NCBI GenBank assembly: GCA_051531975.1
Contig: JAOPTT010000002.1
Location: forward strand, 121,968-185,967
DNA: 64,000 nt
Reading direction: 5' to 3'
Origin: Spirochaetaceae bacterium
Lineage (GTDB): Bacteria > Spirochaetota > Spirochaetia > DSM-2461
Under the pieces are notes generated by a model that ran no database searches, was not told the DNA's origin, and worked only from the letters and a program-made list of their open reading frames with translations. Positions 44,559 through 48,400 of the stretch are shown piece after piece. A program made the position numbers and the translations under genes. Each line of letters opens with the position of its first letter. Position 1 is the stretch's first letter.

Positions 44559-44617
44559 TTGACAAATCCAATATAAAAAGTGATAGTTAATCAGACTAAA
44601 AACACTACATGTAGTGT
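44559..44617 (+). promoter_or_regulatory. nrd operon promoter and NrdR box
   Basis: TTGACA (44559-64), 17 bp, GATAGT; perfect palindrome ACACTACATGTAGTGT (44602-44617) matches the acaCwAtATaTwGtgt consensus. Confidence 0.85.
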
Positions 44618-44634
44618 GAATGAGAGAAATAAGT

Positions 44635-45084
44635 ATGAAATGTCCTCTATGTGGACTAATTCAGGACAAAGTACTTGAATCAAGACAAAATAGTAGTGGA
44701 ACCTCTATCAGACGTAGGAGAGAGTGTGCAGCTTGTAGCTACAGATTCACGTCATATGAGAAGATAGAAGAGATACCTTTAATGGTTGTAAAACATGATG
44801 GTAGACGTCAGCCTTTCGACATAAAAAAGATAGAAAGAGGACTTTCTAGGGCTGTAGAGAAACGACCAGTACCACAATTAACCATTGAAAAGACACTACA
44901 TGATATTGAAGACGAATCAGAACTTGGTGGAAAAGCCAGTCACGAGATTTCTTCTGATTTCCTCGGAGATCTGATTCTTCAAAAGTTATCAAGCATTGAT
45001 AAAGTTGCATATATTAGATTTGCATCTGTATATAGAAAATTTGAAAATGTTGATGAATTTATAGAAGAAATTGAAAAATTATAG
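44635..45084 (+). CDS. nrdR: Transcriptional repressor NrdR
   Basis: MKCPLC...VLESR...IRRRREC..C..RFTSYE zinc ribbon plus ATP cone; 'VAYIRFASVYR'. Start 44635 (track: 44620). Confidence 0.96.
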   Translation: MKCPLCGLIQDKVLESRQNSSGTSIRRRRECAACSYRFTSYEKIEEIPLMVVKHDGRRQPFDIKKIERGLSRAVEKRPVPQLTIEKTLHDIEDESELGGKASHEISSDFLGDLILQKLSSIDKVAYIRFASVYRKFENVDEFIEEIEKL

Positions 45085-45106: not shown

Positions 45107-47200
45107 TTGGGAAGTATTGATTGGAATGAAATTTTAGGGGACAAAAAATTAACTATACCTAAAACTGGTATAAAAAAAATTATTAGACGTGATGGTACTA
45201 TTGATACCTATAAACCTGAAAAAATTGCGAATGCCATATCTAAAGCAATTGAAGCTGTACGGGGAGTTAACGACCCAGAATTAGATAAAAGATTAACTAC
45301 ATTAACCGAGGCTAAATTAGAGGAATTTCAACTTACAAGACATCCAAACTCAATACCTGCTATCGAAGAGATTCAAGACCTTGTTGAGACAGCTTTAATT
45401 GAAGCTAAAGAGGTAGATATTGCAAAAGCATATATACTTTATAGATCTAGACATGAAGCTATAAGAGATCGAGATAAATTACTTTTAGACATAGATGAAA
45501 CTATGGACGGTTACCTATCCCAATCAGATTGGAGAGTTAATGAAAATGCCAACGTAAATTTTTCATTAGGTGGCCTAATTTTACATAACTCAGGAACAAT
45601 AACAGCAAACTACTGGCTAAAAAATATATATACAAAAGATATATCCGAAGCACATAAATCAGGGGCGTTTCATATTCATGATCTTTCCATGTTCTCAGGT
45701 TATTGTGCTGGTTGGTCACTAAGACAACTAATAAAAGATGGTCTTGGTGGAGTTTCAGAAAAAATAACTTCTAAACCTGCAACTCATTTATCTACTTTAA
45801 TGTTTCAAATTGTAAACTTTTTAGGAATCATGCAAAACGAGTGGGCTGGAGCTCAGGCTCTTTCTAGTTTTGATACATTCTTAGCACCATTTGTAAGGGC
45901 TGATAAATTATCTTATAAAGAGGTAAAACAGGCAGTACAAAGCTTTATTTTTGGTGTAAATACTCCTTCTAGATGGGGAAGCCAAGCACCATTTACAAAT
46001 ATTACATTAGACTGGGTCTGCCCTAAAGATCAAATTGGAAAACCAGCTGTAGTTGGTGGTAAAGAACAAGACTTTACATACGACGATTGTACTAAAGAGA
46101 TGGAGATGGTTAACAAAGCATTTCTAGAACTTATGTTACAAGGTGATGCAAACGGTCGTGGTTTTGCATACCCTATTCCAACATATAATATTACCCCTGA
46201 TTTTGATTGGGATACAGAAAATGCAAAGATACTTTTTGAGATCACTGCAAAGTACGGTACTCCATACTTTCAAAACTTTGTTAACAGCGATCTGAATCCA
46301 GAAGATGTAAGATCTATGTGTTGTAGATTACAACTTGATAAACGTGAATTAAGAAAACGTGGTGGTGGACTATTTGGAAGTGATGAATTAACAGGTTCAA
46401 TTGGAGTTGTAACGATTAATCTGCCTAGAATTGGTTATTTAAGTAATACAAAAGAGGAATTCTACCAAAACTTAGGCCATATGATGGATTTAGCTGCAAC
46501 TTCTCTGGTTTTAAAACGTAAAGTTGTTAACAAAATGATGGAAAATGGTCTGTTTCCTTATACAAGAAAGTACTTAAAAAACATGAATAATCACTTCTCT
46601 ACTATTGGTTTAGTTGGTATGAATGAGTGTCTTAGAAACTATAAGTCCCTTGATCTAACATCAAAAGAGGGCCAGGATACTGCCAATGAGATTTTAATTT
46701 TCATGAGAGATAGATTAGCAGATTATCAGGAGAAAACTGGAGACCTTTACAACCTTGAAGCGACACCAGCGGAAAGTACAAGTTATAGACTTGCTAAACA
46801 TGATAAAAAATATTACCCAAATATAATTACTGCTGGAGAAAATGATCCATATTATACAAACTCAACACAACTTCCAGTAGATTTTACAAGAGACATCTTT
46901 GAAGCATTAGATCTACAGGATGCACTACAAACAAAATATACAGGTGGTACAGTTTTCCACGGTATGTTAGGAGAGGCTATAAAGGATTGGAAAGCGTGCA
47001 GAAAGCTTGTTAAAACGATTTCTGCTAACTACAGGTTACCATTCTTCTCAATTTCGCCGATATTCTCTATATGTAGTGTTCATGGTTACTTAGCGGGAGC
47101 ACATGATAACTGCCCAAAATGCAAAGATGAGGAAGCAGCAAAAATAAAGAAACAGATTGACGAGCTTAAACAACAAAAAATTACAAATGGAGAGAGTTAA
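45107..47200 (+). CDS. nrdD: Anaerobic (class III) ribonucleoside-triphosphate reductase catalytic subunit, lacking the C-terminal glycyl-radical motif
   Basis: ATP cone, 'HIHDL', 'YCAG', finger loop 'SMCCRL', 'GSIGVVTINLPR', 'YNLEATPAES', 'YYTNS', C-terminal CSVH/CPKC; no RIVGY motif. Confidence 0.95.
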   Translation: MGSIDWNEILGDKKLTIPKTGIKKIIRRDGTIDTYKPEKIANAISKAIEAVRGVNDPELDKRLTTLTEAKLEEFQLTRHPNSIPAIEEIQDLVETALIEAKEVDIAKAYILYRSRHEAIRDRDKLLLDIDETMDGYLSQSDWRVNENANVNFSLGGLILHNSGTITANYWLKNIYTKDISEAHKSGAFHIHDLSMFSGYCAGWSLRQLIKDGLGGVSEKITSKPATHLSTLMFQIVNFLGIMQNEWAGAQALSSFDTFLAPFVRADKLSYKEVKQAVQSFIFGVNTPSRWGSQAPFTNITLDWVCPKDQIGKPAVVGGKEQDFTYDDCTKEMEMVNKAFLELMLQGDANGRGFAYPIPTYNITPDFDWDTENAKILFEITAKYGTPYFQNFVNSDLNPEDVRSMCCRLQLDKRELRKRGGGLFGSDELTGSIGVVTINLPRIGYLSNTKEEFYQNLGHMMDLAATSLVLKRKVVNKMMENGLFPYTRKYLKNMNNHFSTIGLVGMNECLRNYKSLDLTSKEGQDTANEILIFMRDRLADYQEKTGDLYNLEATPAESTSYRLAKHDKKYYPNIITAGENDPYYTNSTQLPVDFTRDIFEALDLQDALQTKYTGGTVFHGMLGEAIKDWKACRKLVKTISANYRLPFFSISPIFSICSVHGYLAGAHDNCPKCKDEEAAKIKKQIDELKQQKITNGES

Positions 47201-47201
47201 A

Positions 47202-47726
47202 ATGATTCAGACAAAAAGTAAAGTAGACGACAAGATTGAAGCTTTAGAGCAACAATTATTAACAGTGAAAGGTAGAGAAACTGAGAAGTATGCCAGAATA
47301 GTTGGCTACTACAGAGCTGTAAAAAATTGGAACAAAGGAAAAGCTGAAGAGTATAAATTTAGAGTAAGCTTTAGTGAAAAATCTTTTGAAAGATCCATAA
47401 ATGGTTCTGTCGAATCTAAAACTGAAACTCAAAAAACTGAATCTTTTAAAAACATTGCTCAGGCTGTTGGAGAGGTAGATAGCTATATGTTTTTTTATAG
47501 AACTACATGCCCTAACTGTCCTCCTGTAAAAGCAGTAATTAAAAACTTAATCTTAGCAGGTGAGAGTATTAATGCTGATAGTGCAAAAGGTTTTACTAAA
47601 GCTGCTATACATGAAATCTTTACTGCTCCAACTGTTGTACTTCTAGATAATAATAAAAAAGAGATCACTAGAACTTCTAATGTAACTGATCTTAAAATAC
47701 TACTAAAAGAACTAAATATTAATTAA
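47202..47726 (+). CDS. Stand-alone NrdD glycyl-radical domain fused to a thioredoxin/glutaredoxin-like domain
   Basis: GGAGA RBS (47189-93) and ATG 47202 just after the nrdD stop; 'ETEKYARIVGYYRAVKNWNKGKAEEYKFR'; C-terminal 'FFYRTTCPNCPPVK...APTVVLLD'. Confidence 0.85.
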   Translation: MIQTKSKVDDKIEALEQQLLTVKGRETEKYARIVGYYRAVKNWNKGKAEEYKFRVSFSEKSFERSINGSVESKTETQKTESFKNIAQAVGEVDSYMFFYRTTCPNCPPVKAVIKNLILAGESINADSAKGFTKAAIHEIFTAPTVVLLDNNKKEITRTSNVTDLKILLKELNIN

Positions 47727-48400
47727 TGAAGATAAAATTAGGAGGGTTTATTCCAACGACCCTCTTAGACTACCCAGGGGAAATAGCATCTGTTCTATTT
47801 CTCCCTGGCTGTAATCTTAAATGCCCATACTGCCACAACCCATCTATAGTTAATCCACTAAATGATACATTAGACAATATTGATATAATTTTAGAAGCGA
47901 TTGATAAAAGAAAACATCTTATTAGTGGAGTTGTAATATCCGGTGGAGAACCAACCTTATACCAAGATTTAAATGAGTATATTACATACTTTCAGAACCT
48001 TGGATTAAAAGTAAAGTTAGATACAAATGGAACAAACCCAGATCTGCTTAAAAAATTAAAACCAAATTATATTGCCATGGATCTTAAAACCAGCTTAGAG
48101 AAGTATGTTGCTATCGGATATAAGGGTAGTTCAGAAATAAAAGAGAGTTTAGACTGGATTAAAAATAGTGGTATAGACTATGAAATAAGAACAACTGCAG
48201 CACCTATTATTTTTACTAAGGATGACCTAAAACAGATGTTACCACTTTTAAAAGATGTGAAGAATTATTATATTACTAATTTTAGAAATTCTGAGACCTT
48301 GGTGCCAGCGTATAATCTTAATACACCATATAGTGATTATGAGTTAGAAGAGTTTGTGAAAATCTGTAAGGATGCAGGAATTAACTGCACCCTTAGATAA
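47726..48400 (+). CDS. nrdG: Anaerobic RNR activating radical SAM enzyme
   Basis: 'LLDYPG', CNLKCPYCHN (CxxxCxxC), 'SGGEPT', 'KLDTNG'. Confidence 0.95.
   Translation: MKIKLGGFIPTTLLDYPGEIASVLFLPGCNLKCPYCHNPSIVNPLNDTLDNIDIILEAIDKRKHLISGVVISGGEPTLYQDLNEYITYFQNLGLKVKLDTNGTNPDLLKKLKPNYIAMDLKTSLEKYVAIGYKGSSEIKESLDWIKNSGIDYEIRTTAAPIIFTKDDLKQMLPLLKDVKNYYITNFRNSETLVPAYNLNTPYSDYELEEFVKICKDAGINCTLR

Follow-up and report, generated by a model that had tools for sequence, protein, structure and literature searches.

Class III ribonucleotide reductase (RNR) is the textbook glycyl radical enzyme and is always drawn with a catalytic chain, NrdD, that ends in the glycyl radical loop. For another glycyl radical enzyme the loop can also be supplied from outside: GrcA/YfiD of E. 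coli and Y06I of phage T4 are autonomous glycyl radical cofactors for pyruvate formate-lyase (PFL) (PMC8683613, PMC13450708). According to a 2026 review, no glycyl radical enzymes other than formate lyases have small spare-part proteins (PMC13450708); a 2021 paper stated that such proteins might exist for other enzymes (PMC8683613). In this study, we analysed a stretch of 64,000 nucleotides (nt) from a Spirochaetaceae bacterium (GCA_051531975.1, contig JAOPTT010000002.1, positions 121,968 to 185,967; hereafter the window), in which a nrdR-nrdD-X-nrdG gene cluster encodes a NrdD that lacks the loop and a small protein, X, that carries it.

Interrupted or extended RNRs of other kinds have been described. 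The class II RNR of Pseudomonas aeruginosa is split into NrdJa and NrdJb (PMC4520616; cited in PMC9669993), and according to Dwivedi et al. (2013, PMC3653736) nrdD is the RNR gene most often split in cultured phages, with 6 cases. A grx::nrdD fusion was reported in Lachnospiraceae bacterium TWA4 as the single such fusion in a 2018 survey (PMC6187632). That survey kept only matches covering 90% of the RNR profile (PMC6187632), and a 2022 phylogeny removed sequences shorter than 400 residues; length and profile-coverage filters in RNR surveys discard small open reading frames (ORFs). In the full-text literature, with subscription papers and supplementary tables outside its scope, our search found no description of a class III RNR with the glycyl loop on a separate protein.

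Organization of the nrdD, X and nrdG genes

The cluster nrdR-nrdD-X-nrdG is considered to encode an obligate two-chain class III RNR, in which X is a chain of 174 amino acids (aa); we put the probability of this reading at roughly 0.78. The parts of both chains and the adjoining activase gene are as follows. Confidence in the AlphaFold2 models is given as the predicted local distance difference test (pLDDT).

45107..47200, + strand: nrdD core subunit, 697 aa, TTG start; NRDD profile positions 1-532 of 562
46316..46327, + strand: finger-loop motif MCCR, double-cysteine type, residues 404-407; invariant in 25/25 aligned split NrdDs
47072..47122, + strand: zinc site C656, H659, C669 and C672 at the end of the core; all four invariant in the split-NrdD alignment, metal binding predicted
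47123..47197, + strand: C-terminal tail helix of NrdD, 25 residues past CPKC; heptad conservation in 76 loci
47189..47194, + strand: Shine-Dalgarno-like GGAGAG, 7 nt 5' of the ATG of X and within the end of nrdD; read from the sequence
47202..47270, + strand: N-terminal helix of X, residues 1-23; AlphaFold2 helix at residues 3-21, heptads in 75 loci
47271..47372, + strand: glycyl radical loop of X, residues 24-57; NRDD profile positions 532-562, invariant residues across 25 relatives
47373..47480, + strand: variable low-confidence linker of X, residues 58-93; pLDDT 47-48 over residues 71-90, length and sequence differing among relatives
47481..47726, + strand: thioredoxin-fold domain of X, residues 94-174, including the stop codon; AlphaFold2 and Foldseek
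47726..48400, + strand: nrdG activase (radical S-adenosylmethionine); TIGR02495 NrdG2, 175.5 bits against a cut-off of 131.15

The window nrdD scored 1066.7 bits against NF006126 (cut-off 548), and Pfam NRDD (PF13597) covered its residues 146-677 (E 6.4e-173). Residues 24-117 of the core form an ATP-cone; the catalytic barrel and the zinc site are also present, as are the motifs GYCAGW (C200), MCCR and NLEATPAES (E551). As had been claimed in a preliminary description of this DNA, the chain runs past its CSVH/CPKC zinc site with no glycyl motif: the last 25 residues are free of the loop, and the profile match stops at position 532 of 562. The closest solved structure to the core was T. maritima NrdD, 4COI (E 1e-34). 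The window MCCR, which contains the predicted thiyl-radical cysteine, aligned with the CCR of that enzyme, and E551, which is invariant in the split-core alignment, aligned with one of its glutamates; E551 may be the catalytic active-site glutamate.

The nrdD gene ends with TAA at 47198-47200, shortly after a run of six A at 47175-47180. X is encoded by the ORF at 47202-47726 (+), whose ATG lies two bases past this stop in a frame shifted by one base relative to nrdD; the ribosome-binding site (GGAGAG, 47189-47194) and start codon (47202) of its own that had been assigned to it were both found. The missing glycyl motif, the linker, the CPNC redoxin fold and the cis-proline APT had likewise been placed on this ORF, and all are present. 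Its match to the NRDD profile scored 28.2 bits (cut-off 26.2) and covers positions 532-562 of 562; residues 32-38 read RIVGYYR, of which G35 is the presumed radical site. The redoxin motifs are CPNC at 103-106 and APTV at 142-145, including the cis-proline motif PTV at 143-145. The stop codon of X overlaps the nrdG start as TAATG (47724-47728), an arrangement described as translationally coupled.

Conservation of the split and of the two helices

Of 41 related genomes, among them that of the window, 29 contained the small ORF. Twenty loci were fetched, two of which stop at a contig edge, and all 18 visible junctions (the window and 17 relatives) were split; in these loci the loop is therefore never on the same polypeptide as the class III NrdD core. 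Three more genomes, which had been shown with long frames in the family search, were also broken by genuine stops. As the same break was found in every examined relative with a visible junction, its recurrence is beyond chance, and the proposed search of spirochete genomes for the same break point thus gave a positive answer.

Subsequently, the species genomes were scanned, and at least 585 stretches were obtained, nearly all titled Spirochaetota and including Treponema parvum, T. berlinense and T. pectinovorum. The junction statistics of the phylum refer to the best 80 of these stretches. At 76 of the 80 loci, a NrdD ORF with no glycyl motif stood upstream; none was fused, and four had no upstream ORF within the locus. 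All three frame relations were used at the 76 junctions (33, 22 and 21), with a spacing of -20 to +183 nt, and one to nine stops lay between cores and small ORFs that shared a frame. A NrdG-like ORF was found downstream in 67 of the 76 loci. The start codon of the small ORF lies at a conserved distance before the loop, most commonly 30 residues. In the complete genome G055, the truncated core is 600 kb away from the small gene and nrdG, and in G021 (93% complete, 3 contigs) the split enzyme was the only RNR detected in PF13597 and PF02867 searches. The split-core alignment had a mean column identity of 78%. The small-protein family comprised 612 proteins of 95-305 aa at E<=1e-3; among its cluster representatives, 203 were found at E<=1e-10, and the best 150 were all of 113-320 aa. 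In public records, the small ORFs are named hypothetical protein, glutaredoxin, thioredoxin or 'anaerobic ribonucleoside-triphosphate reductase'. One spirochaete-type small ORF was found on a contig titled Anaerovoracaceae (locus L092), which could reflect mis-binning or gene transfer. These findings demonstrate that the split is genuine and conserved and is not an assembly error.

Both ends created by the split carry a helix. When the NrdD tails of 76 loci were aligned on the last CxxC, residues of the group LIVMF occupied positions +8, +12, +15 and +22 in at least 86% of the sequences, and K/R occupied +19 in 99%; in the window the hydrophobic residues of this stripe are I8, I12 and L15. When the small proteins of 75 loci were aligned on RIVGY, LIVMF was found in at least 80% at -27, -24, -20, -17, -13 and -10, and the glycine at -8 was invariant. 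Counted back from the T of TE.Y, the stripe of this lead falls at 22, 19, 15, 12, 8 and 5. The heptad-like helices that had been noticed at the NrdD tail and at the start of X are thus conserved features.

Natural one-chain relatives provide the controls. Open one-chain frames of 821-877 aa were found in five genomes of the phylum (those whose junction was printed), and further fusions were found among proteins of 822-885 aa obtained in a search limited to longer proteins and in a Thermodesulfobacteriota cluster. The order in all of them is core, loop, linker and CxxC redoxin, and neither the tail nor the lead was present in any that we examined; in all the examined one-chain NrdD-loop-redoxin relatives, only 3-10 residues and no helices separate the CxxC from TE.Y. 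The closest pair is formed by P0390, an 885-aa one-chain protein of Treponemataceae, and the split enzyme of the Treponema locus L102. P0390 shares 95% identity (648/685) with the L102 split core and, from QTEVY onward, 71% with the L102 small protein, and exactly the tail, the spacer and the lead are missing from it. The equivalent DNA of L102 (L102:2452-2660) is 208 nt long with CGCAG at both ends, which suggests that a simple deletion between CGCAG repeats rejoined the P0390 gene; the deletion is deduced from the P0390 protein and the L102 DNA. The 90%-identity cluster of P0390 (40 of 131 members read) contains 885-aa forms, one of them on 123 contigs, together with 704-705-aa forms. At the other extreme, a genus with unlinked genes and no redoxin domain retains both helices. 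Judging from these sequences, a broken chain always comes with the helices, and a continuous chain never does. The further search for the same helices in spirochetes thus also succeeded, since both are kept across the split loci.

Since the link from CxxC to T in one-chain relatives is only three to ten residues, the tail and the lead leave from the same point, and their stripes mirror each other about the junction, which fits an antiparallel zipper. We infer that the tail and the lead pair in this way, as two antiparallel helices whose contact takes the place of the missing peptide bond. This comparative evidence, namely the conserved split and helices only in split forms, supports the earlier proposal of a two-subunit class III RNR rejoined by helices.

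A break of this kind could in principle come from a sequencing frameshift in the A6 run or from a decaying, pseudogenised nrdD in an organism that has or had a one-chain enzyme. The two ORFs of the window are one base apart in frame, the frame of the small ORF is open back to 47157, and the run at 47175-47180 lies in this interval. These circumstances are outweighed by the same break at 18/18 visible junctions and at 76 of 80 further loci with none fused, by the use of all three frame relations with up to nine stops between in-frame pairs, by the distance of 600 kb in G055, and by the 78% mean column identity of the cores. The junction had been singled out for an indel check, and a DNA contig from a public run spans 46700-47256 with no difference; this run is possibly the source of the assembly, and the check is weak and may not be independent. 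RNA contigs from run X2 cover 46820-47164 and 47528-47800, and the junction of nrdD and X falls between them. For practical purposes, an artefact or gene decay is refuted. Alternatively, ribosomes might shift frame or read through at the nrdD stop and make a fused chain, leaving the separate small protein as a minor product. A Shine-Dalgarno-like GGAGAG does stand just 5' of the nrdD stop, presumably bearing a superficial likeness to the prfB shift site, and in-frame junctions with a single TAA occur at 4/18 visible junctions and in G035. Nevertheless, the geometry of the junction varies, since overlaps, gaps of as much as 183 nt, every frame relation and multiple stops were found; in G055, core and small gene are unlinked; every small ORF starts at a codon of its own, a conserved distance from the loop; and true one-chain alleles lack the helices instead of reading through them. 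Recoding is therefore considered very improbable. A question of a different kind is the partner of each helix, because the helices might instead join in a bundle of four spanning the NrdD dimer, serve as a docking site for NrdG or lie against the enzyme body. As class III RNRs are dimeric (PMC9669993), two tails and two leads would be present per holoenzyme. However, both helices start at the same anchor with mirrored heptad spacing, and they are gained and lost together, including in the genus with unlinked genes and no redoxin. We regard these other pairings as unlikely and retain the antiparallel zipper as the preferred arrangement.

The redoxin domain and the proposed operation of the enzyme

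An AlphaFold2 model of X with 25 relatives had a mean pLDDT of 79, and residues 94-170 of the redoxin had a pLDDT of about 90. The topology of the domain is strand-helix-strand-helix-strand-strand-helix with CPNC at the start of its first helix. In a Foldseek search against the PDB, thioredoxins were found (E ~1e-4, probability 1.0); a PDB sequence search with X gave chance-level matches only. C103, P104, C106 and P143-T144-V145 were invariant in 25 sequences, and PF00462 was matched by 24 of 25 relatives at E<=0.1 (best 1.1e-6).

The bacterium's own genome also encodes a one-chain NrdD of 757 aa with its own glycyl loop (C8:24907-26811, -, locus L024). This second enzyme has the finger loop MGCR, a four-cysteine zinc site and no corresponding glutamate in the aligned motif. 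Since its finger loop is MGCR, the split enzyme is the double-cysteine, glutamate-bearing type of this genome. A small NrdG-like ORF lies 3' of the second nrdD, and the genome contains two PF02867 (class I/II type) RNR genes besides both NrdDs.

A double-cysteine finger loop with a conserved glutamate has been associated with redoxin-dependent reduction (PMC9669993). On this ground the window enzyme had been assigned to the redoxin-dependent type of N. bacilliformis NrdD; the double cysteine stands, but the match is imperfect, since that enzyme has SCCR and MCCR enzymes such as that of the window keep a methionine linked to formate use (PMC9669993).

Several points can be held against the two-chain reading with a tethered redoxin. 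The redoxin of the window scored below the Pfam gathering threshold (best, Thioredoxin_2, 15.5 bits against 27). In the AlphaFold2 model of the isolated small protein, the glycyl loop is one long helix at residues 26-52, a result that says nothing on docking; this helix was taken as an artefact of folding an isolated chain and was not used. In one Treponema-like genus (9/9 genomes sampled), the small subunit consists of the helix and the loop with no redoxin, as in the following example.

C1:712268-713863 and C1:1315576-1315770 of G055 (loci L297 and L112): example of the redoxin-less genus

Because this genus keeps the helix and the loop, the redoxin is separable from the split. Thus, the loop and the redoxin do stand together on X as had been described, but the redoxin is not obligatory for the split. 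Furthermore, the tethered redoxin need not be the sole reductant, and formate use may remain possible with MCCR.

It can be asked whether the thioredoxin-like domain is the turnover reductant at all, or rather a redox sensor, a protection or gate of the radical loop, or an aid to activation by NrdG. Its dispensability in one genus, the formate chemistry that MCCR leaves possible and the absence of a partner reductase from the operon would agree with such a role. Conversely, CPNC and the cis-proline are invariant in 25/25 sequences, independent lineages fuse a CxxC redoxin to the C-terminus of NrdD, and the Grx::NrdB fusion of Facklamia ignava shows an RNR-fused redoxin as the reductant (PMC6187632). 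On balance, a role other than reductant appears somewhat improbable, and the domain is treated below as the reductant.

The source of the domain was also considered. Capture from a neighbouring stand-alone gene such as that of G030 was rejected, since BLASTP gave no alignment between the two, and in the tree an origin from one-chain NrdD-redoxin fusions is favoured. The G030 locus itself (L025) contains a 912-aa one-chain NrdD followed by a separate 140-aa CxxC redoxin-like ORF and then a NrdG-like ORF. Among the other NrdD genes seen, P0405 and L174:672-3911 are interrupted by inteins, and P0405 also has a C-terminal glutaredoxin-like domain. In a protein atlas, clusters of 131-142 aa with both NRDD and glutaredoxin Pfam matches were commonest in Bacillota (scores 0.85-0.89, leads only); they are possible loop-plus-redoxin subunits outside Spirochaetota.

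Taking the gene anatomy, its conservation, the redoxin fold, the conserved heptads and the co-occurrence of helices and split as the basis, and deducing from them the physical pairing of the helices, the radical site, the electron path and the stoichiometry, we propose the following operation. The 697-aa chain would be the full catalytic body, unable to hold the radical, which NrdG would install on G35 of X. The glycyl loop of X would plug into the barrel of the core beside C405 and C406, and the tail (25 residues) and the lead (23 residues) would zip together antiparallel and hold X on the core. At the end of every turnover, the tethered CPNC domain would re-reduce the disulfide that joins C200 to a finger-loop cysteine, and a cellular disulfide reductase would in turn recharge the domain.

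History of the split, other loop genes and comparison with known systems

A maximum-likelihood tree was built from 61 hand-picked NrdD cores: 32 split cores of the window type, 16 of a second split type, eight one-chain redoxin fusions of the phylum, four from another phylum and a single distant one-chain NrdD. A truncated core had been removed because of its length. The 32 split cores formed a clade with P0389 and P0390 (support 95/90). Its sister consisted of three one-chain fusions (98/94), and more one-chain fusions branched below. P0390 paired with L102 (100/100), and the second split type formed a clade of its own (96/95). The tree places the origin of the split inside the lineage of one-chain NrdD-redoxin fusions. 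With the tree rooted at its midpoint, a position that depends on a single very long branch, the redoxin would have been fused first; the chain would then have been broken once with gain of both helices, and re-joined at least twice.

The second split type, which arose independently, has the break at the same site and occurs in other classes of the phylum (L110, L114, L115 and L118-L135). Its core ends with a short non-heptad tail, and its loop protein, encoded between nrdD and nrdG, is of 50-65 aa and consists of the loop only, with neither helix nor redoxin. Among 22 such mini-ORFs, 17 stand directly 3' of a truncated nrdD, one stands before nrdG only, and four have unrelated neighbours; two further mini-ORF loci gave no ORF with the pattern used. 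In both G199 and G349, a single core has one mini-gene next to it, and two additional, unlinked copies are present at the following positions.

G199 (C36 and C49) and G349 (C1:1351466 and C1:4793672): extra mini-gene copies (loci L111, L117, L122 and L125)

The extra copies are candidate spare parts. Some of them have phage-like neighbours.

Viral sequences were searched with a profile of 20 mini-proteins, and frames were sorted for the best 80 (L137-L216) of at least 491 stretches. Forty were short stand-alone frames, 14 were intermediate, 14 were long and NrdD-like, and 12 escaped the pattern. Pfam scans covered 43 of 48 upstream neighbours (near-duplicates left out) and 25 of 44 downstream neighbours (mostly shorter ORFs left out). 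Three of the upstream ORFs were truncated NrdDs (L151, L153 and L174); the other matched neighbours were tail, terminase, replication, methylase or lysis proteins, and many had no match. The viral orphan loop ORFs are of about 45-100 aa, and several start with KCG, a remnant of the zinc site; those of L157 and L208 have a heptad-like lead resembling that of X. For comparison, long frames were found in 45/80 and short frames in 21/80 metagenome contigs. A 52-aa mini-protein query against the INPHARED cultured phages gave two weak matches, the query being too short to say more, and NCBIfam and PHROG contained no family for a stand-alone loop, only sub-threshold matches to the NrdD C-terminus. 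Taken together, these loci reveal that separation of the radical loop from NrdD is a strategy that recurs.

It is a tentative idea, which we hold to be possible rather than probable, that X is an exchangeable radical cartridge: NrdG would activate X off the enzyme, X would zip on, and only X would be replaced after cleavage by oxygen while the body is kept. If this is true, the same socket principle would explain the unlinked loop genes of 50-65 aa and the phage orphans, and phage copies could re-arm or take over the anaerobic dNTP supply of the host. The 'spare part' repair known only for PFL would then extend to RNR.

Upstream of nrdD, the window contains the following.

44559..44587, + strand: candidate promoter-like site 5' of nrdR (TTGACA, 17 nt, GATAGT); consensus match only
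44620..45084, + strand: nrdR, RNR transcriptional repressor with zinc ribbon and ATP-cone (PF22811, PF03477; TIGR00244, 185.6 bits, cut-off 124.65)

The scan for promoters and terminators gave no more sites than chance would give, with 16 seen against 19.8 expected in the region, and the site at 44559..44587 is a possible operon promoter.

Based on these sequence comparisons, the system is probably a new variant within a known enzyme class, namely a class III RNR of two chains, joined by a putative zipper and bearing a tethered redoxin, whose operation is inferred from natural controls: near-identical one-chain alleles with no helices, a redoxin-less genus, and genes unlinked at the level of a genus. 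Across much of the phylum, a gene of its own encodes the RNR radical loop; this includes cultured Treponema species, which are open to experiment. Several questions thereby become testable: the access of the activase to the buried glycine, the formation of a radical off the enzyme and its delivery, the reduction of the double-cysteine subclass, and the repair of oxygen-damaged RNR.

Finally, the system was compared with those described previously. The one-chain NrdD/NrdG systems (T. maritima 4COI and 4U3E; phage T4 1H78) have in common with it the ATP-cone, the barrel, the finger loop, the zinc site, the loop sequence and NrdG. In those enzymes the loop follows the zinc site on the same chain, whereas in the window it is on a separate polypeptide, with a helix on each chain and a redoxin attached. 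The one-chain NrdD-redoxin fusions (TWA4, and here Spirochaetota and Thermodesulfobacteriota) have the same module order and are basal to the split clade, but are single chains with no helices. NrdJa/NrdJb likewise comes from two adjacent genes, the second of which encodes the chain with the C-terminal functional module; as far as it is described in the sources cited above, it belongs to another class with another cofactor and has no protein radical on the small piece. For the split phage nrdD genes, the cited text names introns, inteins or homing endonucleases as the cause or gives no explanation; it does not present them as a core and a radical subunit and mentions no zipper or redoxin. In the Facklamia ignava Grx::NrdB, the redoxin is also on the radical-bearing component of an RNR and serves as the reductant (PMC6187632); by that account, this is a class I enzyme in which the redoxin is fused N-terminally to the ferritin-like subunit and the catalytic subunit is unsplit. 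The nearest functional parallel drawn in the preliminary description was GrcA/YfiD. Like GrcA/YfiD and Y06I, X is a small loop protein that completes a large body, with a cognate radical SAM activase that is predicted in the case of X. The parallel holds for the small stand-alone loop protein and not for its family or its partner: in a Pfam search at E<=0.01, X gave no match to the PFL family PF01228, and PF13597 was the sole glycyl-radical family matched, with one other sub-threshold, unrelated match. GrcA is homologous to the C-terminus of PFL and rescues an enzyme that has its own loop, whereas X has a NrdD-type loop, a putative zipper helix and a redoxin, and its partner body is always loop-less.

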